A DNA stretch of 64,000 nt, from the NCBI GenBank assembly GCA_045531455.1, contig JAZSEA010000075.1, positions 83,878 through 147,877 on the forward strand. Direction: 5' to 3'. Positions 652 to 51,329 of the stretch are shown here, one piece after another; position 1 is the first letter of the stretch, and every line of letters begins with the position of its first letter. Both the position numbers and the translations under genes were made by a program. Under the pieces are notes generated by a model. That model was not told where the DNA came from. It saw nothing but the letters and a program-made list of their open reading frames with translations, and made no database searches. The DNA is from Eubacteriales bacterium. GTDB taxonomy: Bacteria; Bacillota; Clostridia; Oscillospirales; CAG-272.

Positions 652-668
652 TGGATGCTGTTTTATTA
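636..668. terminator. Bidirectional hairpin terminator between the CPBP gene and rnhA
   Basis: 10-bp stem AACAGCATCC/GGATGCTGTT with a 7-nt loop containing the + strand stop codon, followed by TTTATTATTT. Confidence 0.75.
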
Positions 669-15502: not shown

Positions 15503-15680
15503 TGAGTTCCTCCCTTTGTTTCATATTAAAGTATATCATATTTTTTATATTAATACAATAAGAAAATCAAAAATCTTTCTATCAATATTTCAATACTTCA
15601 ACTTATTTTTATTGGAACATCATAGAATCTTCACATTTCCGAGTTATAATTAGTTTGTAATAATTTAAGGAGGATTGATC

Positions 15681-17108: not shown

Positions 17109-17123
17109 CGGAGGAAATCGGAA

Positions 17124-19420: not shown

Positions 19421-19533
19421 ATTGTGTACTTTCTGTATAATTTTCTTAAAAAAAGAGAGATTTATCTTGTATTTTATTCAATATTGTAATATAATTTGAT
19501 GTGAATATAATTATTTTGAAAGGAGGCACACGA

Positions 19534-20550: not shown

Positions 20551-20556
20551 CAAATA

Positions 20557-21396: not shown

Positions 21397-21409
21397 AAGG
21401 ATATTTACT

Positions 21410-22141: not shown

Positions 22142-22155
22142 CGGAGTCAAATTTT

Positions 22156-23694
22156 ATGCATTTGAACAAAAAATCTATTAAACGATTCACGATACTGTTC
22201 CTGGTAGCACTCATTCTGTTGCCTTGCTTCAGCTTTATGGTAGCTTCCGAGGAAGTCAAGGAGCCTTCAAATCAAGATGACGTACAGGTATCGGAAATGG
22301 TATGCAGGATCAAGAACGTTTCAACGGGACTGTATCTTGATTCCTATAAATACACTCTCAAAACGAAGGGAAAGTCATATACCGAAAAGTACAGCGAAAG
22401 CAGTCTAGGCCAGGTGTTTCATCTTTCTCCTTGTGATGACGGCACCTACAAGATAATTCCTCAGAACGACAACGCTGAATACGCATACGTTTATTCCAAG
22501 GATACAACTTCTGACAAGAAGATCAAAAAGGTCAGAACCTCATCCGCAGGTGATCTTTCAAAGTTTGATATTGTAGAATATCAAGATGATCAATTCTTGT
22601 TTGCACCTTCTAATACAAAGAACAATAAGCTTGTATTAACACAGTCTTCTACGATTTCCGAATACAAAGACAATTACATAGAGCTTCTCGAACTTGACAA
22701 GAATGCGACTAATCAGCTCTGGTCGATCGAACCGATTAAAACTGAAAAGTTGTCCGTAATTTATACGAGTACCAAAGTAAGACTTTATTCTTCGGGCACA
22801 TTTTATGCCCGTAAGTATCCTTATAACGCGTATACTCATGATATCAAATGGACATCGAGTGATGACAGCGTTATTATGATCGGCGAAGACGGTACTTGGT
22901 GCGCGCTCAGTTCCGGTGAGGCAAAGATCACGGCGTCTGTTGACGGAGTTTCAAAATCATTTATAGTGAAGGTCACTGACAGAGATGCTTTCACTTGGTA
23001 CAGCCAAAATAATATCTATACAAGCGATTGGGATGCAACGCAGCTTAAATTCCTTTCATTCTATTCGGGCAGAACGGGACAGACAAAGAAATTTGCCATT
23101 GACTCGAAGGAACCCGGGGGAAATAACTGCTGGCTTGATCAGGGCTGCGGAAACTGTTCGGTTGCAATGGTTCTCAACAATATGGGAGCAACCAAAACAA
23201 CAGGTTTCGATTTCAGATCGGGTCAGGTTGGTGAGCTGATAGCAGACCCTTATACAGTAGCTCTCGCAAATAGCGGAAATTACGGTTCGGACACTAAGAC
23301 CACTTGGCTTCGCGGCGATCCAATTTATATGGCTTGGGCTTATACAGCAGAGCAGTTCAACGTTGACGGACAGAAGGTAATACTCAACAAGATGTATAAT
23401 CCTTCAACGAAGACAATTAAGAATCTTCTTGCCGACCATCCCGAAGGAGTTATCGTTCAGGTCTCCAAGGGAGTCAAAAATCATTATATAGTTTTTGCAA
23501 AATGCACCAATCCGGAAGAGAAGTACAATTCCAGACTCAAGTTTATTGTGTGTGACTCTGCTGCATACTTACCCGAAAACGGAGATTACGTTATGTTCGA
23601 ACAGTCCACCTCTTACCTCTACGAAGGATACAGGTACAGCAATATCGCATCGGTAATGTATTTCACACTTGAAGAAAAAAAGGAAGGTAATTAA
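22156..23694 (+). CDS. Secreted multidomain protein: signal peptide, ricin-type beta-trefoil-like lectin region, Big_2 Ig-like domain, C-terminal C39-like (papain-fold) peptidase domain
   Basis: Signal peptide KKSIKRFTILFLVALILLPCFSFMVA|SEE. IKNVSTGLYLD...NQLWSIEP is QxW-type. IKWTSSDDSVIMIGEDG...AKITASVDGVSKSFIVKV is Big_2-like. GCGNCSVAMVLNNMG ... NHYIVFAK is the C39_2-like Cys/His pair. Confidence 0.6.
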   Translation: MHLNKKSIKRFTILFLVALILLPCFSFMVASEEVKEPSNQDDVQVSEMVCRIKNVSTGLYLDSYKYTLKTKGKSYTEKYSESSLGQVFHLSPCDDGTYKIIPQNDNAEYAYVYSKDTTSDKKIKKVRTSSAGDLSKFDIVEYQDDQFLFAPSNTKNNKLVLTQSSTISEYKDNYIELLELDKNATNQLWSIEPIKTEKLSVIYTSTKVRLYSSGTFYARKYPYNAYTHDIKWTSSDDSVIMIGEDGTWCALSSGEAKITASVDGVSKSFIVKVTDRDAFTWYSQNNIYTSDWDATQLKFLSFYSGRTGQTKKFAIDSKEPGGNNCWLDQGCGNCSVAMVLNNMGATKTTGFDFRSGQVGELIADPYTVALANSGNYGSDTKTTWLRGDPIYMAWAYTAEQFNVDGQKVILNKMYNPSTKTIKNLLADHPEGVIVQVSKGVKNHYIVFAKCTNPEEKYNSRLKFIVCDSAAYLPENGDYVMFEQSTSYLYEGYRYSNIASVMYFTLEEKKEGN

Positions 23695-24085: not shown

Positions 24086-24161
24086 GCTGCTATGGCTCAG
24101 TTGGTAGAGCACATGCTTGGTAAGCATGAGGTCATCAGTTCGACTCTGATTAGCAGCTCCA
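24086..24161 (+). tRNA. tRNA-Thr (anticodon GGU), CCA encoded
   Basis: Manual cloverleaf: 7-bp acceptor stem GCTGCTA/TAGCAGC, D arm GCTC/GAGC, anticodon stem CATGC/GCATG with loop TTGGTAA, T arm ATCAG-TTCGACT-CTGAT, discriminator T and CCA. Length 76 nt. Confidence 0.93.
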
Positions 24162-32556: not shown

Positions 32557-32576
32557 TGCGGGATGCTTCATTTTAT
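32539..32576. terminator. Bidirectional hairpin terminator
   Basis: 13-bp stem AAGCATCCCGCAC/GTGCGGGATGCTT with loop GTTA, then CATTTTATT. Confidence 0.85.
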
Positions 32577-33868
32577 TCTTCTTCCTCGTCTTCGGAAACA
32601 ATCTCTCCGACTAAAACGTGAAGTTTAGTTACAAGTATACCGTCTTCCATTTCGGTAACGGTTATGGTAAGATGTTCAAACGTAAAGCTGTCTCCTACGT
32701 GAGGATCGGAATCAAGGCTTTCGACAGCCCAACCGCCGACTGTGGAGTATTCACATTCAAAGTTCTTCGGATGGAAATCAAGCTCATAGAAGAAGTCTCC
32801 GATACTCATTTCGCCGAGGATCTCATATTCATTTGATGTCTTCTGCGTAAACTCAGATACGATTTCATCAGATTCGTCCCAAATATCACCAACGATCTCC
32901 TCAAGGATATCTTCGATGGTTACTACACCAAGAGTACCGCCGAATTCATCGATAACGATGGCAAGGTGGATCTGTTTTTCTCTCATCTGCTTGAGAGCAG
33001 CAGGAAGCTTGAGCGTCTTGTGCATATAGCAAGGTTCAAGAAGCATAGACTCAATGTCAATGGGCTTGCCGTCAACAGCTTCCTTATAATACTGATTGAG
33101 ATGAAGCACGCCGATAATATCGTCGATACTGTCACGGTAAACGGGAAGTCTTGAGAATGTTGAGTTTTCGATCGTCTCTTTGATCTCGTCGAAATCATCA
33201 TCGAGGTCAATGGTAAGCAAATCGATTCGAGGAGTCATTATCTCCTCAACGGTAGTGTCAGAGAACTCAAGCGACGACTGAAGAAGGTCGCTTTGCTCCT
33301 CATCGATTACTCCTTCCTTTTCGACGGTATCGATAATGGAAGAAAGCTCATCCTCGGTAAACTCGGGAGCGCCGTCAGAATCCTTACCCCAAAGCTTTCT
33401 GAGAAGATTCATAAGAAGCATAACAATAAATACTATGGGGTAGAGAATATAAGTAAGTATCTGCATAGGCCATGCTGTAATCTTACAGAGCAAGTTTGCA
33501 TGCTGCTTTGCTACGATCTTGGGCACAATCTCTCCACAAATGAGGACGATGATCGTAAGAACAGCGGTATTAACAACGGATGCAATAGCTTCGCCGCCAC
33601 TGATGTTTGCGAAAAGCTGCATAAATACTGCGGTACCGCAAGCAGACGCTGCAATATTTACTACGTTGTTGCCTATAAGAATTGTACAAAGGGTATTGGC
33701 GAAGTTTTCACTGATCATGTAAGCAAGCTTTGCCGATTTAGAGCCTTTTTCCTCTGCCTCTCTGCGCAAATGCATATTGTTGGCGGTATTAAAAGCAGCT
33801 TCGGTTCCGGAGAAGCAAGCAGAAAGAACAACCATCACAAAAATTATAACAATATATGCGCCAATCAT
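32573..33868 (-). CDS. CNNM/CorB-type hemolysin-family transporter (DUF21 + CBS pair + CorC_HlyC domain)
   Basis: TM DUF21 region (GEIVPK), a CBS pair, EDILEEIVGDIWDESDE, and about 95 further aa of transporter-associated domain. Its ATG overlaps the upstream paralogue's stop (ATGA). Confidence 0.88.
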   Translation of the reverse strand: MIGAYIVIIFVMVVLSACFSGTEAAFNTANNMHLRREAEEKGSKSAKLAYMISENFANTLCTILIGNNVVNIAASACGTAVFMQLFANISGGEAIASVVNTAVLTIIVLICGEIVPKIVAKQHANLLCKITAWPMQILTYILYPIVFIVMLLMNLLRKLWGKDSDGAPEFTEDELSSIIDTVEKEGVIDEEQSDLLQSSLEFSDTTVEEIMTPRIDLLTIDLDDDFDEIKETIENSTFSRLPVYRDSIDDIIGVLHLNQYYKEAVDGKPIDIESMLLEPCYMHKTLKLPAALKQMREKQIHLAIVIDEFGGTLGVVTIEDILEEIVGDIWDESDEIVSEFTQKTSNEYEILGEMSIGDFFYELDFHPKNFECEYSTVGGWAVESLDSDPHVGDSFTFEHLTITVTEMEDGILVTKLHVLVGEIVSEDEEEE

Positions 33869-34905
33869 CTCTCCACCTCCGTAACGGTAGCAGAGGCCTC
33901 GACTTCATCCTCTTCGTCCCAGATCTCGCCAACGAGCTCTTCAAGGAAGTCCTCGATAGTTACAAGTCCCTGGACCTTATTAGTGTCGTCTCGGACAATT
34001 GCTATGTATTTTCTGTGATTTCGCATATTATCAAGAAGATCCTGAATTTCATCGGTAGTTCTGACATAATGCGGTTTGATTAATATGGAACGAATATCGA
34101 AGTTCTTGTTAGCCATATACTCGCGGAGGAACGCTCTCGTAGACACAATACCGACGATGTGGTCGATACTGCCGTTTGTAACGGGCATTCTGGAATACTG
34201 ACTGTTCTTCAAAACATTGATGATCTCTTTATACGAAAGATTTATATCGATAGAATCGATCTTATCACGAGGAGTCATAACATCTGCGGCTGTTTTATCG
34301 GGGAATTCAAGAACCGAAAGCAACAGATCGGACTGCTCCTCGTCAACAACACCTTGTTCTTCCGCCTTCTCAATAATCTCGATAAGGTCCTCTTCGGTAA
34401 TAGAAGGAACGTTTTCTGCTTTAAATAGCTTTGTTATACCGTTTGAAATCAGAGAGAAGAGAAATACGAAGGGTTTCAGAATTGTCATAATGACACGAAG
34501 AATTGAGCCGCTGAAAAGTGCCGTGGTATCAGGTCTGTCGTTGGCAAACGTCTTGGGGATCATTTCTCCGAAAATAAAGACAATTACTGTTGTGACTAAT
34601 GTTGTAATAGCGGGCAAGCTTTCGGGATCTGCATCCTTGAGTATTTTAGCCATAATCAAGGTTGCGATCGAAGATGCTCCGATATTTACGATATTGTTTC
34701 CAATTAAAATTGCGGTGAGCGCTTTATTGTGATTGTTTGAAATGTAGATTGCGTTCTTGGCTTTCTTATCGCCATCGTCGGCGCGATTCTTGATTCGGAT
34801 CTTGTTCATACGGGCAAAGCCGCTCTCCGAACCCGAGAAGTAAGCGCTGAAGATTACGCAAACTACAAATAAGACTACCAACAATAATAAACTGCCATCG
34901 TCCAT
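33865..34905 (-). CDS. CNNM/DUF21 + CBS-pair protein lacking the C-terminal CorC_HlyC domain
   Basis: Paralogue of the downstream gene (GEMIPK, CBS pair, EDFLEELVGEIWDEEDE), but it terminates 14 aa after that motif. The likely start is the MDDGS Met at 34905; the ORF-track start at 34980 adds 25 AT-rich codons. Confidence 0.8.
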   Translation of the reverse strand: MDDGSLLLLVVLFVVCVIFSAYFSGSESGFARMNKIRIKNRADDGDKKAKNAIYISNNHNKALTAILIGNNIVNIGASSIATLIMAKILKDADPESLPAITTLVTTVIVFIFGEMIPKTFANDRPDTTALFSGSILRVIMTILKPFVFLFSLISNGITKLFKAENVPSITEEDLIEIIEKAEEQGVVDEEQSDLLLSVLEFPDKTAADVMTPRDKIDSIDINLSYKEIINVLKNSQYSRMPVTNGSIDHIVGIVSTRAFLREYMANKNFDIRSILIKPHYVRTTDEIQDLLDNMRNHRKYIAIVRDDTNKVQGLVTIEDFLEELVGEIWDEEDEVEASATVTEVER

Positions 34906-35081
34906 GATGAAATAAAAGATCTCCTTTTCTTTATTTATTTTATATTTATGTATTATACAATATTTTGCATAGAAAGTCAATAGATTTCCATTAAAATATC
35001 AAATAATTGCTTCTATTTGTCTTTTTTATTGTTCAATAATTACAGTTCGTCACTAAATCTCTTCCGAATTCGATTTATCTA

Positions 35082-35110
35082 TTGACTTTTTTACTTTTTT
35101 GTTGTATTAT
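35082..35110 (+). promoter_or_regulatory. Candidate promoter of the murT-like operon (TTGACT-17-TATTAT)
   Basis: TTGACT at 35082..35087 and TATTAT at 35105..35110, with an overlapping TATAAT at 35108..35113. Confidence 0.5.
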
Positions 35111-35128
35111 AATATATTATAATATTTA

Positions 35129-36520
35129 TTGGAACGGTGCCAAACATTGAGAAAAATTCGATTTATTATAGCAATGCTTGCGGGCAAAGCAGCTTTGTTT
35201 CTACTAAAACTTTTGAAGCGTACAGCTTCGTATACGCCGGGATACGTAGCCCTGAAGATTTATCCCGATTTTCTCGGATCACTCCAAATGCCAAAAAAAG
35301 TCATTTGCGTAACCGGAACTAACGGAAAAACAACAACGAGCAATCTTCTCGCAGACGTGCTGAGAGATTGCGGATACTCTGTTACAAACAATAGCGCGGG
35401 CTCAAACGTACAGGCAGGTGTCGCTACAGCGCTTCTTGCCGACGCAACTATATCTGGCAAGCCGACAAAGAAAATTGCCGTTCTCGAGGTCGACGAGAGA
35501 AGTTCTATCAAAGTATATTCTTATATCTCCCCCGATTATCTTGTTTGCAACAATATTATGAGAGATTCTCTCAAGAGAAACGCTCATACCGATTTTATCG
35601 TTTATATCATAAATAAGGCTCTTTCTCCAAACACTCACATCATTCTTAACGCAGACGATCTTATTTGCTGCTCTGTTGCAGAAGCTAATGTCAAAAAGAC
35701 TTACTTTGGTATGGATGCAAACAAACCGCTGACATGGGATACGAACGCTCCGCGAGATATTTATTACTGTCCAATCTGCGGCAATAAGCTTGAGCCCGAG
35801 TATATCAGATATAATCACATCGGAAGATTCGAGTGTACGGGATGTGATTTCGCTTCTCCCAAACGTGATTATACCGTTACCGCAATCGACGTAGAACACA
35901 GCACATTTACCGTAGAACACAAAGGACAAGCTCACGATTACAAGCTCGTCAACGATAATATTGTTAACGTATACAACTGTTGCGGTGCAATTGCAGTCCT
36001 CTCTGAATTCGGGCTATCTTACGAACAGATCTCCGGTGCGTTGCAGAAGCAGAAGATCGTTAAATCAAGATTCGATACTCTTACCGCAGGAAAGCTCAAT
36101 ATCACTATGCAGCTCGCCAAAGGACAAAATCCGATCGCTTGCGCAAGAGCTTACAGCTACGTTACCGGTTGCCCTGCCGAGAAGAAGTCTCTGCTGATTA
36201 TGGTCGACGATAAGTCGGACAACAACGGCAATTCCGAAAGCGTTTGCTGGATCTATGACTGTGACTACAGCGCGCTAACCAATGACAGCGTCGGAGAGAT
36301 CATATTCTCGGGACCTCGCTGCAGAGACCAGAAGCTTCGTGCCTTGATGGCAGGGGTAGATCCTTCAAAAATCAAAACAGCAGACACCTTCACAGGTGGA
36401 GTTCATCTTGTCGACACAGAAAAGTATAATGATATTTTCGTTCTGTATGATCCTTATCTGCTCGCGGAAGCAAACTATACAAAGAACGAGCTCATCCGCA
36501 AAGGAGGAGAAAAGGTATGA
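35129..36520 (+). CDS. murT: MurT-like Mur-ligase-family protein (lipid II isoglutaminyl synthase ligase-subunit homologue)
   Basis: P-loop GTNGKTTT, LEVDE, LNADD, the Cys4 ribbon CPICGNKL...CTGCDF and a C-terminal ...VCWIYDCDY region, colinear with S. aureus MurT by eye. The start is uncertain: TTG at 35129 or TTG at 35147. Confidence 0.75.
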   Translation: MERCQTLRKIRFIIAMLAGKAALFLLKLLKRTASYTPGYVALKIYPDFLGSLQMPKKVICVTGTNGKTTTSNLLADVLRDCGYSVTNNSAGSNVQAGVATALLADATISGKPTKKIAVLEVDERSSIKVYSYISPDYLVCNNIMRDSLKRNAHTDFIVYIINKALSPNTHIILNADDLICCSVAEANVKKTYFGMDANKPLTWDTNAPRDIYYCPICGNKLEPEYIRYNHIGRFECTGCDFASPKRDYTVTAIDVEHSTFTVEHKGQAHDYKLVNDNIVNVYNCCGAIAVLSEFGLSYEQISGALQKQKIVKSRFDTLTAGKLNITMQLAKGQNPIACARAYSYVTGCPAEKKSLLIMVDDKSDNNGNSESVCWIYDCDYSALTNDSVGEIIFSGPRCRDQKLRALMAGVDPSKIKTADTFTGGVHLVDTEKYNDIFVLYDPYLLAEANYTKNELIRKGGEKV

Positions 36521-37227
36521 TAATCGAAGTTCTTTTTGACGAAATTTGTAATCTCTACGGAGATCCGCAAAACGTTATATATCTGCAAAAAACTTTACCC
36601 GACGCCAAGATCATACGTACCACTCTTGATTCGGAACCCTATTTTCTGAATAACAGACCCGATATTATCATAATGGGTTCTATGAGTGACAGTATGACGT
36701 CGAACGTAATAGAAAAACTAAAGCCTTATATCGATCGCATCAACGAGCTGATTGATGATAACGTAGTTTTCCTTATAACAGGAAACGCTTGCGAAGTGTT
36801 CTGCAAAACAATCGAAAACATCACTCTCGATACTAAGCTTGAAGGACTCGGCTTGTTCCCGTTCGACGTGAAGATAAATTGGTTTGACAGATATAATGGT
36901 AAGGTTCTCGGAAAAGTTGAAAATATGACAATAACGGGCTTCAGATCACAGTTTTCTATGATCTACGGTGATGATAATGCGTATCCGTTTGTCACAATAG
37001 ATCGAGGAATAGGCAAAAACAGGGAAAGCAAGATTGAAGGCTTCCGTAAAAATAACTTTATCGGTACGCAAATTCTCGGACCGATACTTCCGCTCAATCC
37101 GGAATTCTGTGAGTACTTGATCTCACTTACCGGCGCAACCGCAGAAGCAGCATTCAAAGAAGAAGCTATGGATGCCTATAATCAGAGGATCAAGGAATTC
37201 TCCGATCCCAAAATCAAATTTGAATAA
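36517..37227 (+). CDS. GatD-like CobB/CobQ-type amidotransferase-fold protein, histidine-free (predicted glutaminase-inactive)
   Basis: Overlaps murT-like by ATGA, with a GGAGGAG RBS. NLYGDPQN and GTQILGPILPLN align with GatD. There is no His codon in all 236 codons. The nucleophile elbow reads LITGNACEVF instead of (L/A)(T/I)ICGG(Y/F)Q. Confidence 0.65.
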   Translation: MIIEVLFDEICNLYGDPQNVIYLQKTLPDAKIIRTTLDSEPYFLNNRPDIIIMGSMSDSMTSNVIEKLKPYIDRINELIDDNVVFLITGNACEVFCKTIENITLDTKLEGLGLFPFDVKINWFDRYNGKVLGKVENMTITGFRSQFSMIYGDDNAYPFVTIDRGIGKNRESKIEGFRKNNFIGTQILGPILPLNPEFCEYLISLTGATAEAAFKEEAMDAYNQRIKEFSDPKIKFE

Positions 37228-37248: not shown

Positions 37249-38475
37249 ATGAAACTTATCAAGACCCCCACCAAAGGTATGAACGACTATCTCCCCTCCG
37301 AGGTAGCTCTTCGCGAATACGTTAAGAACGTAATTATTAATTCCTATACCGCTGACGGATTCTGTATGATTGAAACCCCCGCAGTAGAGCACATCGAGAA
37401 TCTGACAGGAAAGAACGGCGGCGAAAACGAAAAGCTCATCTTCAAGATCATGAAAAGAGGCGAAAAGCTCGCTAATGCCTCTTCGGAAGACGAGCTTTGT
37501 GACAGCGGTCTCAGATACGACCTGACTGTTCCGCTTTCGCGCTATTATGCCAACAACTCCGCAAAGCTTCCTTCCCCTTTTCTTGCAATGCAGATCGGTA
37601 ACGTATGGCGAGCAGACCGCCCCCAGAAGGGAAGATACCGCCAGTTCACTCAGTGTGACATAGACATTCTCGGCGATGCAACGCAGACCGCAGAGATCAC
37701 CCTCATTTCTTCAACTGCAGGTGTTCTCCGTAAGCTCGGATTTGACAATTTCACTATCCGAATTAACGACAGAAGAATGCTCAAGCTTTGCGCCGAGGCG
37801 TGTGGATTCGCACCTAAAGATCACGATAAGGTGTTTATTATCCTCGACAAAATGGATAAGATCGGTCTTGAAGGCGTCAAGAACGAACTCCTTAACGAAG
37901 GATATGCTGAAGAGAACGTTACCAAGTATATTGCGCTCTATGAAGGCTGTGACACTGTAGCCGTTGAAGATTTCGCATCTACTCTCGGTGAACAGGGCAA
38001 GCAGATCGCTTCTGATATCGCGACTATTATGAGATGCGCTTCTGCCGCTACCGTTGGAGGCTGCAAACTTGCATTTGACCCCACGCTTGTAAGAGGTATG
38101 TCATATTATACCGGTACCATCTTCGAGATCAGAATGGACGGGTACGGATACTCTGTCGGAGGCGGCGGAAGATACGATGAAATGCTCGGCAAATTTATGG
38201 GTCAGAAGGTACCCGCTTGCGGATTCTCTCTTGGATTCGAGAGAATCGTTTCTGCGCTCGCAGATTCGGGCTTTGTACCTCCCGCAGCAAGCAGATCGGT
38301 TGCATTCCTTGCATCCAAAAAGATGGATGAGGAAGCAATGCTTAAGATGTATTCGGATGCTGCCGCACTTCGCGCAGAAGGAGTCAGAGTTCTCGTTACC
38401 GCGAGAATGAAGAATGTATACTTCCAGAAGACCAAGCTTGAAGAGGAAGGATATACCGAGTTCATCGAATATTGA
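37249..38475 (+). CDS. hisS: Histidine--tRNA ligase (class IIa; LRYDLTVP-type)
   Basis: GMNDYLP, LRYDLTVPLSRY, RADRPQKGRYRQFTQCD, VRGMSYYTGTIFE, GGGGRYD and GFSLGFERI, plus a C-terminal anticodon-binding-like domain. GAGG RBS. Starts 21 nt after the gatD-like gene. Confidence 0.85.
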   Translation: MKLIKTPTKGMNDYLPSEVALREYVKNVIINSYTADGFCMIETPAVEHIENLTGKNGGENEKLIFKIMKRGEKLANASSEDELCDSGLRYDLTVPLSRYYANNSAKLPSPFLAMQIGNVWRADRPQKGRYRQFTQCDIDILGDATQTAEITLISSTAGVLRKLGFDNFTIRINDRRMLKLCAEACGFAPKDHDKVFIILDKMDKIGLEGVKNELLNEGYAEENVTKYIALYEGCDTVAVEDFASTLGEQGKQIASDIATIMRCASAATVGGCKLAFDPTLVRGMSYYTGTIFEIRMDGYGYSVGGGGRYDEMLGKFMGQKVPACGFSLGFERIVSALADSGFVPPAASRSVAFLASKKMDEEAMLKMYSDAAALRAEGVRVLVTARMKNVYFQKTKLEEEGYTEFIEY

Positions 38476-38491
38476 TCGGAGGGCATTTTAA

Positions 38492-39424
38492 ATGTATATC
38501 GTTGATTCGCATTGCGACAGTATAGCTTACGTAGACTCCGGCAAATATCCGCTCGTGAATCCTCATAATTTCAGCCAAAAATACAATCAATTGCAGTTTG
38601 TTGCAATGTTCTGTATGGCAAAAGACGGTGTTTTGGAAGAAGCCTACAAGAAAACTGTTCGCTATATTGGACACTTTGCCATTGCTATGCAAAAAGAATC
38701 CGATAAGATCATTCAAGTTAAGACTTATAATGATATCGAAACCGCTTTTTCAACGGGTAAGCATGCGGCAATACTTGCCATCGAAGGCGGATCCGGAATC
38801 AAAGGCTCGCCTGACGTACTCGAAGATTTCTACAAGATCGGCGTCCGTGTTATGGGGCTTGCGTGGCTCACAAACGAACTTGCCAAAAGCAACAGAATCA
38901 CAGACGGGGAAGAGGATACAGGGCTTACAGACCTTGGAAAAGCAATAGTCGAAAAAGGTAACTCTCTAGGTATGATCTTCGACGTATCTCATCTTTCGGA
39001 TAAGAGTTTTTGGGATCTTACAGAAATTTCGAAGAAGCCGATCATTGCTTCTCACTCGAATTTCAGAACTCTTTGTCCTCACAGCAGAAATCTTACCGAT
39101 GATATGGCAAGGTTTATTGTCGAGCACGACGGTATGATCGGTCTGAATATGTATCCCGAATTCGTTGACAAAGACCCCAAGAAGCAGTCCGTAGACAGGT
39201 TCTTTGACCATCTTGATTATTGTATCGACAATTTTGGCTCGGATAACATAGGTTTTGGCGGTGATATTGACGGCACAAGCGGAATGTATCCCTCTCCAAT
39301 AACCGAAGAAAGATCGATTCACGATCAGTTTATTGAAGCAATGTTCAAGCGCGGTTATTCCACCACAATGATAGAAAAATTCGTTGGTGGTAACTATCTC
39401 AACTACTTAAGAAAATACTTGTAA
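38492..39424 (+). CDS. Membrane-dipeptidase family (M19) dipeptidase
   Basis: The N-terminus VDSHCDS (HxD metal ligands) and the overall pattern (...IEGG......LAWL.N...SHSN...GGDIDG) fit renal-dipeptidase-type enzymes. GGAGGG RBS. Confidence 0.8.
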   Translation: MYIVDSHCDSIAYVDSGKYPLVNPHNFSQKYNQLQFVAMFCMAKDGVLEEAYKKTVRYIGHFAIAMQKESDKIIQVKTYNDIETAFSTGKHAAILAIEGGSGIKGSPDVLEDFYKIGVRVMGLAWLTNELAKSNRITDGEEDTGLTDLGKAIVEKGNSLGMIFDVSHLSDKSFWDLTEISKKPIIASHSNFRTLCPHSRNLTDDMARFIVEHDGMIGLNMYPEFVDKDPKKQSVDRFFDHLDYCIDNFGSDNIGFGGDIDGTSGMYPSPITEERSIHDQFIEAMFKRGYSTTMIEKFVGGNYLNYLRKYL

Positions 39425-39428
39425 GCAT

Positions 39429-39455
39429 AAAAGCTGCCATTACGGCAGCTTTTTG
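39429..39455. terminator. Bidirectional hairpin terminator
   Basis: AAAAGCTGCC-ATTAC-GGCAGCTTTTT between convergent genes, overlapping the minus-strand stop codon. Confidence 0.8.
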
Positions 39456-40132
39456 CTTTCAATTTTAACTATTTCAGAGGTTGATTTAACAATAGAATCG
39501 GGCGGTATTACACCTCTTACAGACACGAGAGGATATACTCTTGAATTCTTCATAATTACTGTTCCCGGATTCAGAACAGATCCGCATCCAACTTCAACAT
39601 GATCAGAAAGGATCGCACCAAGTTTGCCGAGTCCTGTAGGAATCGTATCTGCGAATCTGATATTAATCTCGCTCTTATCTTGCTTTTGATTAGAGCAAAC
39701 CGCTCCTGCACCCATATGTGAATAATTGCCGATTACCGAATCCCCTACATAATTATAATGCGGAAGCTGAGCATTATCAAAAATAATGCTGTTCTTTATC
39801 TCGGTGGAATTACCTATAACACAGTTATCGCCAATAATTACGTTTCCTCTGATATATGCTCCTGGGCGTATTTCACAATTCTTACCTATTATGCAAGGTG
39901 ATACGATAACCGACGTCGGAGCAATTTCAGTCCCATCTCCGACCCACACATCCTTTGAATATTCACGATACCCCAGTAAAGTTTGATTATCAATTATTTG
40001 ATAAATGAATTCATCGATATAAGGCAAAACTTCCCAGGGGAAATCAAATGAATCAAATAATTCTTTGACCAACTCGGGAATATGATCAAAGAACACTTTT
40101 GTTCTAATATTGTTCTTGTCAATCATTTGCAT
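39440..40132 (-). CDS. Stand-alone left-handed beta-helix (hexapeptide-repeat) acyltransferase resembling the GlmU C-terminal GlcN-1-P acetyltransferase domain
   Basis: IRPGAYIRGNVIIGDNCVIGNSTEIKNSIIFDNAQLPHYNYVGDSVIGNYSHMGAGAVCSN matches the GlmU LbH pattern. No nucleotidyltransferase domain is present. Overlaps the glmM stop by 8-14 nt. Confidence 0.7.
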   Translation of the reverse strand: MQMIDKNNIRTKVFFDHIPELVKELFDSFDFPWEVLPYIDEFIYQIIDNQTLLGYREYSKDVWVGDGTEIAPTSVIVSPCIIGKNCEIRPGAYIRGNVIIGDNCVIGNSTEIKNSIIFDNAQLPHYNYVGDSVIGNYSHMGAGAVCSNQKQDKSEINIRFADTIPTGLGKLGAILSDHVEVGCGSVLNPGTVIMKNSRVYPLVSVRGVIPPDSIVKSTSEIVKIESKKLP

Positions 40133-41519
40133 TCAACCCTCTCTTAATTATTGCATTCTTTATTGTTTCAATACACTTCGTGCAAATTTCATAGGATGAC
40201 GCCTCAACCATAATTCTTACAACGGGTTCAGTGCCGCTTGCTCGAAGGAGAACTCGACCGTTATCCCCAAGATTCTCATCAACCTCACGCAATGAAGCAA
40301 GAACAAGAGCATCTTCCATAACCTTATCTTTATTTTTAACAGCTAAGTTTTCGGTTATCTGAGGAAAAAGCTTAACGTTCTCACATAGCTTCGAGAGATT
40401 TGTTTTGTTATCCTTCATCTCTTCGGTAAGCATTATAGCGGTAAGAATTGCGTCACCCGTTGTAGCATATTTTCCGATAATGATATGCCCCGACTGCTCT
40501 CCTCCAAGTCCGTATGCGTTTTCCTGCATCTTCTGATAAACGAATCTATCGCCTACGGATGTTATTTCATATGATATTCCGCAATTATCGAAGGCTTTCA
40601 GGAGCCCCATATTGGACATAACAGTCAGTACAACCGTATCTTTGTTAAGGTTACCGCATGATTTCAATCTTTTTGCCAAGATATACATAATCTTATCACC
40701 GTCAACTACGTTTCCGTTCTCATCAACGGCGATACACCTGTCTGCGTCACCATCGAATGCAAATCCTACATCAAGTTGATTCTCTTTAACATATTTGGTG
40801 AGATTGTCGATATGAGTAGATCCAACGCTGTCATTGATATTTACTCCGTCGGGAGATGCACCGATAACGTACGTCTGTGCCCCTAAGGCATCAAATACGG
40901 CTTTTGCTATTGTCCAAGCTGCACCGTTTGCGCAGTCGAGACCAATCTTGAGATTTTTATACGAATGTGAAGCAAGGGAAATCAAGTATCCGACGTATCT
41001 GTTTCTGCCTGCGACGTAGTCAACTATCAATCCGATATTTTCACGTGTTGCTAGCGGTAGATCATCGCCGTTGACATTAATAGTAGATAGATCTCCGTCA
41101 AGATATGATTCTATCATTGACACTATTTTGTCATCAAGCTTTTCGCCGTACCTATTTACGATCTTAATTCCGTTATCGTAATAAGGGTTATGAGAAGCGG
41201 TGATCATAATTCCGCAATCGAATTCATCCTGTCTTGTAACGTAAGAGACACTCGGAGTGGTTGTGACATGTAGCATATACGCATCCGCGCCCGAAGCTGT
41301 GATACCTGCTACTATCGAATATTCAAGCATATAGCTTGATCTTCTCGTGTCTTTTCCGATAAGAATCTTTCGGCGTGCATTTGTTTTTCCGGCATAATAC
41401 CACCCCAAGAATCGTCCGACTTTATAGGCGTGTAAAGAAGTCAGGTCAACGTTTGCCTCACCTCTGAAGCCATCCGTACCAAAATACTTGCCACAGGCGT
41501 TCTTTTTATCATTATTCAT
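40119..41519 (-). CDS. glmM: Phosphoglucosamine mutase
   Basis: Active-site ITASHNPYYDNGIK, the metal-binding loop FDGDADR, and the GEQSGH loop. Confidence 0.92.
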   Translation of the reverse strand: MNNDKKNACGKYFGTDGFRGEANVDLTSLHAYKVGRFLGWYYAGKTNARRKILIGKDTRRSSYMLEYSIVAGITASGADAYMLHVTTTPSVSYVTRQDEFDCGIMITASHNPYYDNGIKIVNRYGEKLDDKIVSMIESYLDGDLSTINVNGDDLPLATRENIGLIVDYVAGRNRYVGYLISLASHSYKNLKIGLDCANGAAWTIAKAVFDALGAQTYVIGASPDGVNINDSVGSTHIDNLTKYVKENQLDVGFAFDGDADRCIAVDENGNVVDGDKIMYILAKRLKSCGNLNKDTVVLTVMSNMGLLKAFDNCGISYEITSVGDRFVYQKMQENAYGLGGEQSGHIIIGKYATTGDAILTAIMLTEEMKDNKTNLSKLCENVKLFPQITENLAVKNKDKVMEDALVLASLREVDENLGDNGRVLLRASGTEPVVRIMVEASSYEICTKCIETIKNAIIKRGLNAND

Positions 41520-43451: not shown

Positions 43452-44591
43452 ATGAATATGGGAAGAATTTTATTAGGCGCTGACAGATTTGATGAATTAA
43501 TTAACATTATCCGCAATAAGCGTTGCGGATTACTTACCGCGGCTTCAGGGGTTGATTCATTCGGTATTCCAACCTATTACAAGCTTCATAGTCTCGGAGT
43601 ATTAAGCGTATTGTTTTCACCTGAACACGGAGTTCATTCTGTGATGCAGGACGGTGGATGGAGCGGAGAATACGTCGATAAGGAAACAGGACTTCCTGTT
43701 TTTGATCTTCCATCAAAAGGTAATCCGAATATCGACCGTGCTCTTTCACTCTGTGATATCGTAATTTACGATATTCAGGATGTTGGTGCCAGATTCTATA
43801 CATACGTTTATTGTCTTACATATCTTATGGAGGAATGCGCCAAACGAGCAATTCCGGTTTACGTGCTTGACAGACCTGATCCGATAAGCGGAAGTTTGGA
43901 CAAAATATCGGGGGCAGTACTTGACGAAGAGCGTTATTCTTCGTTTGTCGGTAAATATGCTATGCCCGTTCGTTATTCGCTTACATGCGGCGAATTTGCT
44001 CTATATATTAACAGAACCAAGAATATTAATTGCGATCTTCATATCGTTAAGTGCGAAAATTGGCATCGTGAGCAGTATTGGGACGATACCAATCTTTTGT
44101 GGATCAATCCCTCTCCGAACATACCAACAGTTCATTCAGCGGTCAACTATATCGGTACCTGCCTCATAGAAGCGACAAACGCTTCGGAAGGAAGAGGGAC
44201 TACACGTCCTTTTGATATAGTAGGTGCGCCTTTTGTTGACTCATTAAAGCTGACTGAGCATCTCAACAGCTTAAAGCTTGACGGCATCATTTTCAGCCGT
44301 GCTTTCTTTACTCCTATGTTCGGTAAATGGCAAGGCGAGTGCTGTGAAGGTGTTCAACTCAACATAATAGACAAGCGAAGCTATAATCCCCATCTCGCGG
44401 GATTGCATATACTTGCCGCACTTCGTAATTATAAGGAACTTACGATTCGTGACAACGGTCTTTGTCTGCGATACGGTAATGATGCATTGATCGATCCGCG
44501 CGGATTCGATCCGATTGAAGTATTTAAGTCGGAATCATCGGGTATCGAAAAATTCAAGACTGAGATGAATAATTATTTGTTGTACAATTAA
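43452..44591 (+). CDS. DUF1343 family protein (NamZ-like exo-beta-N-acetylmuramidase family)
   Basis: FSPEHG and the IYDIQDVGARFYTYVY motif are characteristic of DUF1343/YbbC. No signal peptide is visible. Confidence 0.78.
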   Translation: MNMGRILLGADRFDELINIIRNKRCGLLTAASGVDSFGIPTYYKLHSLGVLSVLFSPEHGVHSVMQDGGWSGEYVDKETGLPVFDLPSKGNPNIDRALSLCDIVIYDIQDVGARFYTYVYCLTYLMEECAKRAIPVYVLDRPDPISGSLDKISGAVLDEERYSSFVGKYAMPVRYSLTCGEFALYINRTKNINCDLHIVKCENWHREQYWDDTNLLWINPSPNIPTVHSAVNYIGTCLIEATNASEGRGTTRPFDIVGAPFVDSLKLTEHLNSLKLDGIIFSRAFFTPMFGKWQGECCEGVQLNIIDKRSYNPHLAGLHILAALRNYKELTIRDNGLCLRYGNDALIDPRGFDPIEVFKSESSGIEKFKTEMNNYLLYN

Positions 44592-47243: not shown

Positions 47244-49166
47244 ATGAGACTCCGTGCACCTTCTTATCCTCTGATCACAATTGATCCTTATTTCAGCATT
47301 TGGTCCCCCGCAGACAAGCCTACCGAAATAGATACCACACATTGGACAGGCAAGCCGATAACCCTTTCAGTTATAGCAAATATCGACGGCAAGGATTTCA
47401 GACTCATCGGAAAATACGGTAGTGAAGCGATCCCTGCTGCAAACCTTGAATCTGTAGATTGCTCCGCATTTTCTACCACTTACGTATATAACGAGAACGG
47501 CGTAAAGCTGTCTTTGATTTTTACCTCACCTGTAATTCCTGATGACCTTTATATGCTCTCGAGACCTATCAGTTATCTTGAAGTTAAGAAAGAATCGGCA
47601 GACGGCGGAAGACATAACGTTTCTCTCAAAATAGAAATGTCGGAAGAGGTCTGCATGAACCTCCGCGGCGACGACACTGTAGAGATCGCAAAGATCGAGC
47701 TTGGTCAGCTTTCAAGCATTAAAATGGGCAAGACAGAGCAAAAGATCCTCGGAAGATGCGGCGACGATCTTCGCATCGAATGGGGTTACTTCTACCTTAC
47801 CGGTGTTGGAAATACATATTCAAGAACTGATGCAGAAGGCATGACCTTTGTGGGAATCGAGTCCCAGATCAAGTCTTCGTCCTTGTTCACGTTTGCATAT
47901 GACGACATTGAGAGTATGCAGTACTTCGGAAAGAACCTCAAGACCTATTGGAACAAGGACGGCGCAAAGATCGAAGATGAGATCCTCAAGGCTCACGGTG
48001 ATTATAAGCACGTAATGCGAAAATGCTCTCAGATCGGCGAGAAGCTCTTCTGCGATGCTGTACGCGCCGGAGGAGAGAAGTATGCCGAGATCTGCGAGCT
48101 TTCCTTCAGACAGGCTATTGCGGCTCACAAGCTTGTTCTTGATGAAAACGGCGACGTCCTCTTTATATCCAAGGAGTGCTTCTCCAACGGCTGTGCCGCT
48201 ACAGTTGACGTAAGCTATCCATCTATCCCGCTTTTCCTCATCTACAACCCCGAACTCGTTAAGGGTATGATGAGACCTATCTATAAATATGCTGCTTCCG
48301 AAGATTGGAAGTACGACTTTGCGCCTCACGATGCAGGCTGCTATCCCCATGTAAACGGTCAGGTTTACGGCGGTAACAGACTCGAAAAGCAGATGCCCGT
48401 TGAAGAATGCGGCAATATGCTGATTATGGAAACCGCTGTTGCTATTGCAACAAAGGATGCCTCCTTTGCCGCTTCTCATATGGGCATTCTTGATCAATGG
48501 GTAAAGTACCTCATTGACAACGGTAGAGACCCCGAGAACCAGCTTTGCACCGATGACTTTGCAGGTCACCTTGCTCATAACTGTAATCTTACCCTCAAGG
48601 CTATTATGGGTATCACGGGATACGCGATCATCAAGGGAATGCTCGGAGACAAGAGAGCCAAGAGAAAGTTTATTGCGATGGCAAGAAGTATGGCTTCCGA
48701 TTGGGCAGTGAGAGCTTCTAACGGCGACGGAAGCTACAGACTTGCTTTTGACAAGCCCGGCACCTTCAGCATGAAGTACAATATAGTTTGGGATAAGCTT
48801 TTCGGTACAGAGATCATGTCCAAAACTGTAATAGAATCTGAGGTTGCAAGCTACCGCAAGCACACTGATGCCTACGGCCTTCCTCTCGATAACCGTCAGC
48901 CCTACACCAAGAGCGACTGGCTTATCTGGACCGCAACACTTGCTGAGAACAGAGACACCTTTGAGGATATGGTAGAGCCTCTTTGGAACGCTTACAACAG
49001 TATGCTTTCGAGAGTTCCTATGACGGACTGGTATTACACCGTAACAGGTCAGCACAAGAACTATCTCAGCCGCTCGGAAAACGTTGACAAGAGCTTCAGA
49101 AACAGAACTGTTGTCGGCGGTCATTTCATCAAGCTTCTTGAATACAAGGGCATTATGAAGCTCTGA
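47244..49166 (+). CDS. Glutaminase-A-like family protein (DUF4964/DUF5127/DUF4965/DUF1793 architecture), cytoplasmic form
   Basis: The N-terminus MRLRAPSYPLITIDPYFSIWS and the overall 640-aa layout are typical of this family. No signal peptide. AAAGGAG RBS. Confidence 0.65.
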   Translation: MRLRAPSYPLITIDPYFSIWSPADKPTEIDTTHWTGKPITLSVIANIDGKDFRLIGKYGSEAIPAANLESVDCSAFSTTYVYNENGVKLSLIFTSPVIPDDLYMLSRPISYLEVKKESADGGRHNVSLKIEMSEEVCMNLRGDDTVEIAKIELGQLSSIKMGKTEQKILGRCGDDLRIEWGYFYLTGVGNTYSRTDAEGMTFVGIESQIKSSSLFTFAYDDIESMQYFGKNLKTYWNKDGAKIEDEILKAHGDYKHVMRKCSQIGEKLFCDAVRAGGEKYAEICELSFRQAIAAHKLVLDENGDVLFISKECFSNGCAATVDVSYPSIPLFLIYNPELVKGMMRPIYKYAASEDWKYDFAPHDAGCYPHVNGQVYGGNRLEKQMPVEECGNMLIMETAVAIATKDASFAASHMGILDQWVKYLIDNGRDPENQLCTDDFAGHLAHNCNLTLKAIMGITGYAIIKGMLGDKRAKRKFIAMARSMASDWAVRASNGDGSYRLAFDKPGTFSMKYNIVWDKLFGTEIMSKTVIESEVASYRKHTDAYGLPLDNRQPYTKSDWLIWTATLAENRDTFEDMVEPLWNAYNSMLSRVPMTDWYYTVTGQHKNYLSRSENVDKSFRNRTVVGGHFIKLLEYKGIMKL

Positions 49167-50002
49167 TGAAGATCAATTTCACCAAAATTCAATCCTGCGG
49201 AAACGATTACATATACGTCAATTGCCTCGAAGGCATAGATTTTGATCCCTCCGGGCTTGCACTCAGAATGTCACCAAGACATTTGTCCGTAGGCTCGGAC
49301 GGCGTGATCCTCGCTTGTCCTTCGGATATTGCGGATTTCAAGATGCGCATTTTCAATGCCGACGGCAGTGAAGCGAAAATGTGCGGTAACGGAATCCGAG
49401 GCTTGGCGGCATTTCTTGCTGATGAAGGTCTTATCTCCGCAAGTACACCCACCCTAAAGATTGAATCCAATTCAGGCGTTCACGCTGTTAATTTCAATTC
49501 AGATGGTACAATATCAGCTGAAATGGTTAGTCATTCATTCGATCCATCTGATATTCCTATGAAAAGAAGAGCCCCTCTTCGAGGCGATTCGATATTAGTA
49601 AGTGGCGTTGAATATAAATCTTACGCCGTTTCTGTCGGAAATCCGCATCTCGTATTATTCGTCGATAACGTTAACATATTCGAACTTGAAGATACAGCAA
49701 AACCTATCAACGAATCCTGGCTCTTTCCTGATGGAGTAAACGTTGAAATCGTTTCTGTTTCGACAGACAAAAGAACTAGTATGCGGGTTTACGAGCGCGG
49801 AAGCGGAGAGACTTATTCATGCGGAACAGGTGCATGTGCAGTTGCTCTCTCACTAATCGAAGAGGGAATTGCAGATCGGGATAATGTAGTTATTCATACA
49901 CGCGGCGGTATACTCAAATGTTCGATGTCAGCAAGCGGAAGAATGATTCTTTCCGGAAACTCGCAGATAGTATATAAAGGAATTTACGAGTACAATAAAT
50001 AA
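49166..50002 (+). CDS. dapF: Diaminopimelate epimerase
   Basis: CGNDYIYV, plus both catalytic Cys motifs (MCGNGIRG and SCGTGACA). Its ATG shares one base with the upstream TGA (TGATG). Confidence 0.93.
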   Translation: MKINFTKIQSCGNDYIYVNCLEGIDFDPSGLALRMSPRHLSVGSDGVILACPSDIADFKMRIFNADGSEAKMCGNGIRGLAAFLADEGLISASTPTLKIESNSGVHAVNFNSDGTISAEMVSHSFDPSDIPMKRRAPLRGDSILVSGVEYKSYAVSVGNPHLVLFVDNVNIFELEDTAKPINESWLFPDGVNVEIVSVSTDKRTSMRVYERGSGETYSCGTGACAVALSLIEEGIADRDNVVIHTRGGILKCSMSASGRMILSGNSQIVYKGIYEYNK

Positions 50003-50003
50003 A

Positions 50004-51329
50004 ATGATTACTAAAGAAAGAAAAATAACATCACTTAACCCCAATATTTCTGTGACCGAGGATGACGGTCATCTCCATTTTGCTGGTTACGATACCATTA
50101 AACTTGCAGATAAGTACGGCACGCCTCTCTATCTCATAGATGAGGAACATATCCGAAAAATGTGCAGGATCTACGTAGAGTCTATGAAGGAAGCTTTTGA
50201 CAACTATTCAATGCCGCTATTTGCAAGCAAATCGCTCTCCTTCAAAAAGATATATAATATCATTGATTCCGAGGGAATGGGTGCTGACGTTGCTTCTATC
50301 GGCGAACTTTTTACAGCCTTACAAGCAGATTTTCCTGCCGAAAAGCTGATGTTCCACGGCAATAACAAAACCGATTCGGATATTACTTTTGCAATCACGC
50401 ACGGAGTCGGATGCTTCGTCTGCGACAACAGAGAAGAGCTTACTTCAATTGACAATATTGCTGGCCAATTCGGTATCAAGCAGAGAATCATGATAAGAGT
50501 CACTCCCGGCATTGATCCGCATACCCATGCAAAGATCAACACGGGCAGAATTGACAGCAAATTCGGTGCGGCGATCGAAACTCATCAGGCAGAAGAGCTT
50601 ACAGCATATGCTTTAAGTCTTAAGAACATCGATCTTCGCGGTTTTCATTGCCATATAGGTTCTCAGATATTTGATTTCGAGCCTTTCTGCGATGCCGCAA
50701 GAATTATGCTGAAATTCATCGCTGATATCAAGAACAGCCTTGGATATAGCGCGCGTTATCTCAATCTCGGCGGAGGAATGGGAGTCAGATACGTTTCATC
50801 CGATCCAGAGATAGATTACAGAGCAAATATTCTGAAAATAGGCGAGATCGTTAAAGAAGAATGCAAAAAGCTTCATATAAACCGTCCGCACATCTTTATG
50901 GAGCCTGGTAGAAGTATCGTTGCAGCCGCAGGCATGACTCTTTATACCGTAGGCGCAATCAAAGAGATCGAAGGCTTCAAGAACTACGTTTCGATCGACG
51001 GCGGAATGACCGATAATCCTCGTTACGCTCTTTACAATTCTTCCTATACAGTCGCTCTCGCCAATAAGATGAATGAGGCCGATAATTTCACTTGCACTGT
51101 AGCGGGCAGATGCTGTGAAAGCGGTGATCTCATCCAGGAAGATGTTACGATTCCACGCCCTGTAAGAGGAGACATTCTTGCCGTTGCTACAACAGGTGCG
51201 TACAATTACTCGATGGCTTCGAATTACAACAGAATTCCGCGACCTCCCGTAGTAATTCTTAATAATCAAAAGGACTACATAGCAGTAAGACGCGAAACTC
51301 TCGATGATTTGGTTTCTTATGACAAATAA
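50004..51329 (+). CDS. lysA: Diaminopimelate decarboxylase
   Basis: Fold-III PLP enzyme motifs (ASKSL Lys, HCHIGSQ, LGGGMGV, EPGRS, CESGD). Starts 1 nt after the dapF stop. Confidence 0.93.
   Translation: MITKERKITSLNPNISVTEDDGHLHFAGYDTIKLADKYGTPLYLIDEEHIRKMCRIYVESMKEAFDNYSMPLFASKSLSFKKIYNIIDSEGMGADVASIGELFTALQADFPAEKLMFHGNNKTDSDITFAITHGVGCFVCDNREELTSIDNIAGQFGIKQRIMIRVTPGIDPHTHAKINTGRIDSKFGAAIETHQAEELTAYALSLKNIDLRGFHCHIGSQIFDFEPFCDAARIMLKFIADIKNSLGYSARYLNLGGGMGVRYVSSDPEIDYRANILKIGEIVKEECKKLHINRPHIFMEPGRSIVAAAGMTLYTVGAIKEIEGFKNYVSIDGGMTDNPRYALYNSSYTVALANKMNEADNFTCTVAGRCCESGDLIQEDVTIPRPVRGDILAVATTGAYNYSMASNYNRIPRPPVVILNNQKDYIAVRRETLDDLVSYDK

Follow-up and report, generated by a model that had tools for sequence, protein, structure and literature searches.

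A MurT/GatD-type gene pair with a predicted inactive glutaminase subunit, conserved in gut and rumen Clostridia

Can a MurT/GatD complex whose glutaminase half has lost its catalytic residues still take part in the amidation of peptidoglycan precursors, and where would its nitrogen come from? In the accepted mechanism of MurT/GatD the hydrolysis of glutamine is coupled to the amidation of lipid II, with Cys94 and His189 of the Staphylococcus aureus GatD as catalytic residues and Asp349 of MurT as the third member of an inter-subunit triad (PMC6113224, PMC5871853, PMC3266927). The question is raised by a 64,000-nucleotide stretch of contig JAZSEA010000075.1 from an Eubacteriales bacterium (assembly GCA_045531455.1, positions 83,878 to 147,877), hereafter called the window, in which a murT-like gene is followed by a gatD-like gene whose product contains no His. 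We propose, with a probability that we place at roughly 55%, that this pair is a lipid II isoglutaminyl synthase of the MurT/GatD type with a dead glutaminase half, in which free ammonia (NH3) acts as the donor and the GatD-like partner as a structural subunit. The substrate (D-iso-Glu of lipid II), the donor and the scaffold role of the inactive subunit are inferred from the comparisons described below, while the homology and the fold of both proteins, which are of the MurT and GatD type, are established.

The closest match of the MurT-like protein in the PDB is MurT of S. aureus (7q8e_A, E-value 3.7e-49); the MurT proteins of S. aureus, Streptococcus pneumoniae and Streptococcus pyogenes are found with E-values of 4e-49 to 7e-45, with pMurC, CphA and MurC–F far behind, and the NCBIfam models of MurT are matched at 5e-57. 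The protein contains the Mur-ligase middle domain (PF08245, 39.8 bits against a cutoff of 24) and, in residues 333–439, the MurT_C domain (PF08353 or DUF1727, 63.8 bits against a cutoff of 25). Its AlphaFold2 model has a mean predicted local distance difference test score (pLDDT) of 83.7, the stretches of low pLDDT being the two loops that contact GatD in crystal structures, and a Foldseek search of the PDB with this model places MurT chains at ranks 1–13 (2e-27 to 8e-24), followed by pMurC (7e-19) and MurF (4e-17). All the motifs from which the earlier note, drawn up without database searches, had recognized a MurT layout are present, namely the P-loop, LEVDE, LNADD, the Cys4 ribbon and the C-terminal WIYDCD. 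Among 116 full-length relatives GTNGKT, LEVDE, N-x-D-D, LAKGQNP and the NNIMRDSLKRN motif (N141–N151), which is part of a GatD-contacting loop, are invariant or nearly so; in the P-loop, N65 is found in 115 of the 116 and position 70 is V or T. LEVDE is the region of the ATP/Mg glutamate, which corresponds to E108 of S. aureus MurT, and the Cys4 ribbon is specific to MurT among the Mur ligases (PMC6113224, PMC6085368). To judge by these residues, the ligase half of the pair is intact.

The 236-residue partner had been assigned to GatD by eye, and this homology is borne out by the phmmer alignment to S. aureus GatD (5n9m/6gs2_A, E-value 1.3e-13), by the NCBIfam GatD models (6e-15 and 2e-11) and by Foldseek, in which the first nine PDB matches of its AlphaFold2 model (pLDDT 95.6) are all GatD chains, with template modeling (TM) scores of up to 0.86 (0.85 and E-value 7e-18 for 6gs2_A). 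The GatD proteins of lipid II amidation complexes are thus the best matches in sequence and in structure, well ahead of HisH and Pdx2. The window protein matches no Pfam family, and even at E ≤ 1 not GATase_3 (PF07685); many members of its clade carry a precomputed match to this family. CobQ and CobB, which share a sub-family of class I amidotransferases with GatD and the window protein, differ from the latter in retaining both the Cys and the His and in being joined to another synthetase domain.

Compared with the MurT/GatD complexes of S. aureus, S. pneumoniae and S. pyogenes (PDB 6GS2, 6H5E, 7Q8E, 6FQB and 9SQ9), the window pair exhibits the same operon order, the same three MurT elements (middle domain, Cys4 ribbon and MurT_C) and the same GatD-type class I amidotransferase fold with an extra C-terminal helix (residues 214–229 of the model). 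It also shares the NLYGD loop, the xGPILPxN loop, the equivalent of Arg128 and the W-x-[YW]-D motif of MurT; the two loops (the first as NLY-x-D) and the MurT motif are interface elements of the pneumococcal complex. Sequence identity to the known complex is about 25% for the GatD-like protein and about 27% for MurT. The differences from the S. aureus complex are the following: Cys94 is replaced by Gly, His189 by Leu, the GGG oxyanion strand by GSM and Asp349 of MurT by Ser, and the DNAAD motif of MurT is altered.

In the phmmer alignment residues 89, 125 and 187 of the window protein fall on C94, R128 and H189 of S. aureus GatD, and in the model Gly89 occupies the strand-to-helix elbow (strand 84–88, helix 89–95). 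The Leu that the earlier note had placed at the catalytic His, and the altered elbow it had pointed out, are therefore found where they were said to be; C92 of the LITGNACEVF segment lies three residues off the nucleophile position and is not conserved, as Cys is found there in 64 of 120 close and 10 of 150 distant relatives. Two of the three glycines of the oxyanion strand, the role of which in GatD has been described (PMC6085368, PMC5871853), are replaced. On the MurT side, the segment reported as changed indeed carries Ser371 at the position of Asp349 (q371 to t349 in the alignment to 7q8e_A), within S-E-S-V-C-W-I-Y-D; this loop has low pLDDT in the monomer model, as expected of an interface loop, and of the 116 close relatives 112 have Ser and four have Asn at this site. 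Arg125 corresponds to the "glutamine sequestration" residue Arg128 of S. aureus GatD (PMC5871853) and to R142 in S. pneumoniae, and is kept. In S. aureus, the C94S, C94G, C94A, H189A and R128A variants of GatD and the D349N variant of MurT are inactive (PMC6113224, PMC5871853, PMC3266927). With the Cys, the His, the Gly-rich oxyanion strand and the Asp of MurT all lost, glutamine-dependent amidation is not expected, and the GatD-like protein is predicted from these residue losses to have no glutaminase activity; the loss goes further than the earlier note had described.

It could be argued that glutaminase activity persists by means of non-canonical residues, such as Ser as the nucleophile or a cysteine in the vicinity, C11, C92 or C96 (the window protein has four Cys and no His). 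We examined this in a diverse set of 162 full-length members of the clade, reaching down to about 33% identity and including a second, profile-based sample. Ser does occupy the nucleophile column in 11 of the 162, and C11 is found in 56% of them. However, none of the 11 Ser-bearing members has a His in the His column, no Cys or His found elsewhere in the protein is conserved throughout the clade (the highest values are 56% for C11, 50% for C26 and 31% for H126), and in S. aureus neither Ser, Gly or Ala in place of Cys94 nor Ala in place of His189 left an active enzyme. We thus consider a cryptic glutaminase highly improbable.

The dead state is not peculiar to the window. A database clustered at 90% identity contains 1,045 homologues of the GatD-like protein, and a library clustered at 50% identity yields 143 matching clusters at E ≤ 1e-30 and 451 at E ≤ 1e-10. 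In the 120 closest relatives (58–100% identity) the nucleophile column is Gly without exception and the His column is Leu in 114 and Ile in six. Across the diverse set the nucleophile column comprises G in 146, S in 11, N in two and A, T and H in one each, with no Cys, and the His column L in 80, I in 60, V in ten, T in five, M in three, S in two and C and H in one each. The Cys–His pair occurs in none of the 162 members, since the only one with a His in the His column has Gly as its nucleophile residue. The survey of orthologs suggested in the earlier note thus reveals a large clade in which the inactive state is maintained. The complete absence of His, which had been the most conspicuous feature of the window protein, is true of that protein but does not hold as a trait of the clade, in which relatives have between zero and five His residues; the robust trait is the absence of His from the catalytic position.

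This distribution also bears on whether the window gene is a decaying or strain-specific, non-functional copy that accompanies an intact paralog, a scenario that the earlier note had named as a possible refutation of its own reading. What could be said for it is that the inspection covered 64 kb of the genome, and a canonical paralog may be present elsewhere. Against it stand more than 1,000 homologues in the same state in several families, intact reading frames, translational coupling and natural fusions of the two genes. The ratio of nonsynonymous to synonymous substitutions (dN/dS) is 0.05 for L002 and L004, the sole pair of loci unsaturated at synonymous sites; for the other pairs the proportion of nonsynonymous differences is 0.1–0.25 and that of synonymous differences is saturated. 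The clade is under strong purifying selection. Tblastn searches with both proteins found no second MurT/GatD pair in the 64-kb window, and according to a pangenomic study bacteria mostly possess a single copy of murT (PMC11915815). As an explanation by decay this scenario is effectively refuted. One pair of open reading frames of suggestive size (477 and 236 residues, positions 15675–17834) was considered as a canonical paralog and rejected, as it encodes HtrA and an OmpR-type response regulator.

The losses in the two subunits can be followed together in 17 linked pairs (the window, 12 further loci and four natural fusions). In none of them does the GatD-like partner have the catalytic Cys or His. 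At the position of Asp349 in MurT, 15 of them have S, N or Y, L009 has D and L010 has E. The latter two, from a Clostridia metagenome-assembled genome (MAG) and from Lawsonibacter hominis, are the most distant members; in addition to the acidic residue in MurT, both still have G-A-G as their oxyanion strand and, in the NLYGxxGN loop, the Gly, and they may represent evolutionary intermediates between the canonical and the fully degenerate forms. The linked pairs look like a graded series of residue losses, which fits a role of Asp349 that serves the glutaminase half only. The model of an inter-subunit triad put forward by Nöldeke et al. thereby gains independent support from natural sequences. 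Furthermore, four independent clusters fuse MurT and the GatD-like domain into a single chain of 698–758 residues (P0241, 698; P0248, 728; P0287, 730; P0327, 758) with linkers of variable length, which argues for an obligate 1:1 complex.

The genome loci belong to MAGs assigned to Eubacteriales (of yak, sheep and rumen origin) and to Lachnospiraceae, to one MAG assigned to Clostridia and to a cultured organism, the human-gut isolate Lawsonibacter hominis NSJ-51 (contig NZ_JACOPP010000014.1); Eubacteriales, Lachnospiraceae and Oscillospiraceae are represented, as drawn from ten genome loci and a few MAG names. Abundant clade members are also found on many contigs of human-gut metagenomes.

How could such a complex work? 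In the scheme that we favor, the MurT-like ligase would probably use ATP to phosphorylate D-iso-Glu of lipid-linked peptidoglycan precursors at its alpha-carboxyl, and the same carboxyl would then be amidated by free cytoplasmic ammonia instead of ammonia derived from glutamine. The GatD-like protein, incapable of hydrolyzing glutamine, would be retained, translationally coupled to MurT and in some lineages fused with it, as a structural or activating subunit that MurT needs. The closest experimental precedent is the C94G mutant of S. aureus GatD (Münch et al. 2012), in which the nucleophile is replaced as it is in the window protein: its complex with MurT showed no glutamine-dependent activity, while NH3-dependent amidation of lipid II at pH 8.5 was unaffected, and MurT alone was inactive with either donor (PMC3266927). 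This precedent explains both why loss of the chemistry is permissible and why the subunit must be kept, and of the donors considered free ammonia appears to be the best supported. The mutant, however, differs from a canonical enzyme by one engineered change and shows its activity with NH3 at pH 8.5 only, whereas the natural clade has further conserved changes (the His, the oxyanion strand, the Asp of MurT, N90 and E93), which may adapt the pair to the use of NH3 or to another role.

The rumen and the colon are habitats rich in ammonia, which makes NH3 plausible as the donor. There is also a parallel in carbamoyl-phosphate synthetase I (human CPS1), which uses free ammonia and retains a module with the class I amidotransferase fold that lacks the catalytic Cys. 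Human CPS1 (5dou_B) is itself among the Foldseek matches of the GatD-like model, at rank 50. The evolutionary logic is alike, in that a glutaminase module without its activity is maintained for a structural or regulatory purpose. CPS1 differs in being a eukaryotic, mitochondrial enzyme with unrelated synthetase chemistry and domain architecture, and its dead domain is fused.

Several observations weigh against amidation by free ammonia, or against the assignment as a lipid II isoglutaminyl synthase. The S. aureus enzyme uses NH3 at pH 8.5 but not at pH 7.5 (PMC3266927), and an enzyme restricted to NH3 would need a high intracellular concentration of ammonia or extra adaptations. The peptidoglycan chemotype is unrecorded for most genera of Lachnospiraceae, Ruminococcaceae and Oscillospiraceae (PMC11382707). 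The possible canonical paralog outside the 64 kb that were searched belongs here as well. Neither subunit reaches the NCBIfam equivalog cutoffs: MurT scores 193.8 and 186.6 bits with NF045635 and NF052464 (cutoff 800), and the GatD-like protein 55.6 with NF052463 (cutoff 450) and 43.8 with NF045636 (cutoff 400). The DNAAD motif of MurT, proposed to contact the stem peptide (PMC6113224), reads SDNNGN in the window and is variable across the clade. Finally, few parts of the protein are as well conserved as the former active site, which has acquired new residues and has retained Arg125. The conserved motifs are T88-G89-N90-A91-x-E93, G54-x-M56-x-E58 (the oxyanion strand, with a clade consensus of G-[SPA]-M-[TS]-E), R125, N127, T184, G188-P189 and N194-P195, of which G188, P189, N194 and P195 are found in at least 98% of the 162 members. 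Such conservation of the pocket exceeds the obvious needs of a pure scaffold and hints at a role in ligand binding.

It is tempting to consider that the old glutaminase pocket has been repurposed, and we rate this as somewhat unlikely. A site that captures and deprotonates ammonium could let the ligase amidate lipid II at neutral pH; a sensor of glutamine or nitrogen status could place cell-wall amidation under the control of that status; and, most radically, the complex might install a non-amide substituent on the alpha-carboxyl of D-Glu in abundant Clostridia of the gut and rumen.

For the sensor in its specific form, in which the dead glutaminase binds glutamine or ammonium without hydrolysis and tunes MurT allosterically to the nitrogen status while the amidation still uses NH3, one can cite Arg125, the equivalent of Arg128 and Arg142, which is Arg in 95% of members, together with the replacement of elbow residue Gln98 by Glu in about 83% and of the oxyanion-strand Asp by Glu (E58) in 92%. 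With the Arg kept and Glu gained, the determinants that bind the backbone are retained or become more acidic, while the chemistry is lost. On the other hand, Met56 and Leu/Ile187 may merely fill the pocket, and Arg125 could be structural, so that we regard such a sensor as improbable.

The other specific form concerns the nucleophile. Several bacteria bear glycine, amides or diamines on the alpha-carboxyl of D-Glu (the chemotypes of Schleifer and Kandler), and the enzymes responsible are largely unassigned. The ligase of the window might accordingly join this carboxyl to another amine or amino acid, for example glycine, an amino-acid amide or a diamine, with the dead subunit positioning the nucleophile. 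The loss of the entire ammonia-generating machinery, the new conserved polar residues of the pocket (N90, E93 and E58) beside the kept Arg125, and the changes in the DNAAD motif and in the "negative gate" region of MurT are all in line with this possibility. However, direct evidence for it is lacking, the pocket of GatD is far from the acyl-phosphate site of MurT, to which it is linked by a narrow network of cavities for ammonia (PMC6085368), the loci contain no conserved neighbor gene that would supply an unusual amine, and the C94G precedent is simpler. We consider another nucleophile unlikely, and return to amidation by free ammonia as the preferred reading.

The features of the locus are collected in Table 1. 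The positions of both reading frames and the ATGA (36517–36520) shared by the murT stop (TGA, 36518–36520) and the gatD-like start agree with the earlier note. Database gene calls for the identical MurT-like protein use an alternative TTG at 35147, which yields 457 residues. The Shine–Dalgarno sequence inside murT and the ATGA overlap suggest that translation of the two genes is coupled.

Table 1. Features of the murT/gatD-like locus (window coordinates, except for the last two rows, which are in the coordinates of their own loci)
Feature	Position	Strand	Remarks
Candidate sigma-70-like promoter, TTGACT-17-TATTAT	35082..35110	+	Upstream of murT; consensus scan, 10/12 matches; pattern match only
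murT-like gene	35129..36520	+	463 aa from TTG 35129; ATP-dependent Mur-ligase subunit
P-loop GTNGKTTT	35315..35338	+	MurT residues 63–70; G63, T64, G66, K67, T68 and T69 invariant in 116 relatives
Cys4 zinc-ribbon insertion	35768..35845	+	C214, C217, C236 and C239; all four Cys invariant in 116 relatives
MurT loop DDKSDNNGNSESVCWIYDCDY	36206..36268	+	Residues 360–380; equivalent to S. aureus NDNAADGRD349TSWIYDADF
AGGAGG Shine–Dalgarno of the gatD-like gene	36502..36507	+	Inside the 3' end of murT, ~10 nt before the ATG; read from the sequence
gatD-like gene	36517..37227	+	236 aa; class I glutamine-amidotransferase fold of GatD type without catalytic residues (predicted pseudo-glutaminase)
Former oxyanion strand G54-S-M-S-D58	36676..36690	+	Canonical GatD: G-G-G-S/Q-D
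Former nucleophile elbow L86-I-T-G89-N-A-C-E93-V-F-C96	36772..36804	+	Gly89 at the Cys94 position
Arg125	36889..36891	+	Equivalent of S. aureus GatD Arg128, kept
Former catalytic-His loop T184-Q-I-L187-G-P-I-L-P-L-N-P195	37066..37101	+	Leu187 at His189; S. aureus G-T-Y-L-H189-G-P-I-L-P-K-N
hisS (histidine–tRNA ligase)	37249..38475	+	TIGR00442, 298.6 bits, cutoff 286.75; ordinary hisS
Most distant members, L009	6001-6711		MurT upstream
Most distant members, L010	6001-6717		MurT upstream

The hisS gene starts 21 nucleotides past the stop codon of the gatD-like gene. No terminator-like site was found between the two, and hisS is probably co-transcribed with the pair. No T-box or other RNA element that would tie the pair to hisS was found either, the Rfam matches in the window being limited to a tmRNA gene (55206-55575, minus strand, 157.8 bits) and one tRNA gene (24086-24158, plus strand). 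We regard hisS as a neighbor and not as a functional part of the MurT/GatD-like system. An M19 dipeptidase gene comes after hisS (37249-39424 for the two), and the order murT, gatD-like gene, hisS, dipeptidase is kept only in the five closest genome loci (L001–L005). Beyond the close relatives only the pair itself is conserved, with murT directly upstream of the gatD-like gene in every locus compared.

The flanks of the pair in the window contain genes for GlmM, for an acetyltransferase resembling the C-terminal part of GlmU and for NamZ, which amounts to a loose theme of cell-wall precursor synthesis and recycling. GlmM adjoins the acetyltransferase, a stand-alone hexapeptide protein of 230 residues without a nucleotidyltransferase domain, and the exo-N-acetylmuramidase NamZ is encoded nearby (39440-41519 on the minus and 43452-44591 on the plus strand). 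In the human-gut relatives L011-L018 a gene for a polysaccharide deacetylase of the PF01522 family (positions ~80-990, minus strand), a family that includes peptidoglycan N-deacetylases, divergently adjoins murT at 1115.

These neighborhoods bear on the possibility that the resemblance to MurT/GatD is only a resemblance, and that the target of the pair is a carboxylate in another envelope polymer or in a metabolite. The scores far under the equivalog cutoffs, the divergence of the DNAAD motif and the variability of the neighborhoods outside the close relatives could be read in this way. However, the top matches in sequence and structure are specifically MurT and GatD, ahead of pMurC, MurF, CphA, HisH and Pdx2; the Cys4 ribbon specific to MurT and the MurT_C domain are present; and GlmM, NamZ, a deacetylase, VanZ and a MurJ-like flippase recur as cell-wall neighbors. 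A target other than peptidoglycan therefore seems very unlikely to us.

Some other genes of the window may be mentioned. Two tandem genes for CNNM/CBS-domain membrane proteins of the CorC/TlyC type (32573-34980, minus strand) are divergent from murT and are kept in L001 and L003. A six-hairpin protein labeled "glutaminase A" (PF16335, with DUF4964 and DUF5127) is encoded directly upstream of dapF and a lysA-like decarboxylase gene (47244-51329); it is probably a glycoside-hydrolase-like protein and not a true glutaminase. The presence of dapF and the lysA-like gene indicates that meso-diaminopimelate is made. A cluster on the plus strand (19501-23694) encodes a sortase-domain protein, an RlmA-like methyltransferase, a GT2 glycosyltransferase and a protein of 512 residues without a Pfam match.

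The murT-gatD operon was described as "widespread in the Clostridiales" in a 2018 survey of its distribution. In the open-access literature, where a failure to find is no proof of absence, we found no account of a clade of GatD without the Cys or the His, of a naturally ammonia-dependent MurT/GatD, or of a MurT/GatD study specific to Clostridia, in agreement with the earlier note, whose author was not aware of a described His-less clade. The group described here is thus a sizeable, unrecognized clade of pseudoenzymes in an important cell-wall pathway, and is not categorically new. Its members are labeled "glutamine amidotransferase" or "hypothetical protein" in the databases, and the former annotation, when assigned automatically, should be treated with caution.

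MurT/GatD is essential or nearly so, and is a drug target in staphylococci, streptococci and mycobacteria. If the glutaminase chemistry has been discarded while both subunits are maintained by selection in dominant Clostridia of the gut and rumen, this would show that GatD has an essential role other than catalysis. The clade is also an experiment of nature that tests the model of an inter-subunit Cys–His–Asp triad by mutation: the Asp has been lost together with the Cys and the His, and the ligase has remained intact. Amidation of D-iso-Glu alters the sensing of peptidoglycan by the host receptors NOD1 and NOD2 (PMC11132681, PMC11382707). For most of the peptidoglycan chemistry in these families no map exists as yet, and the variant described here provides a testable handle on it; it suggests that the amidation of the cell wall in these organisms depends on ammonia and not on glutamine.

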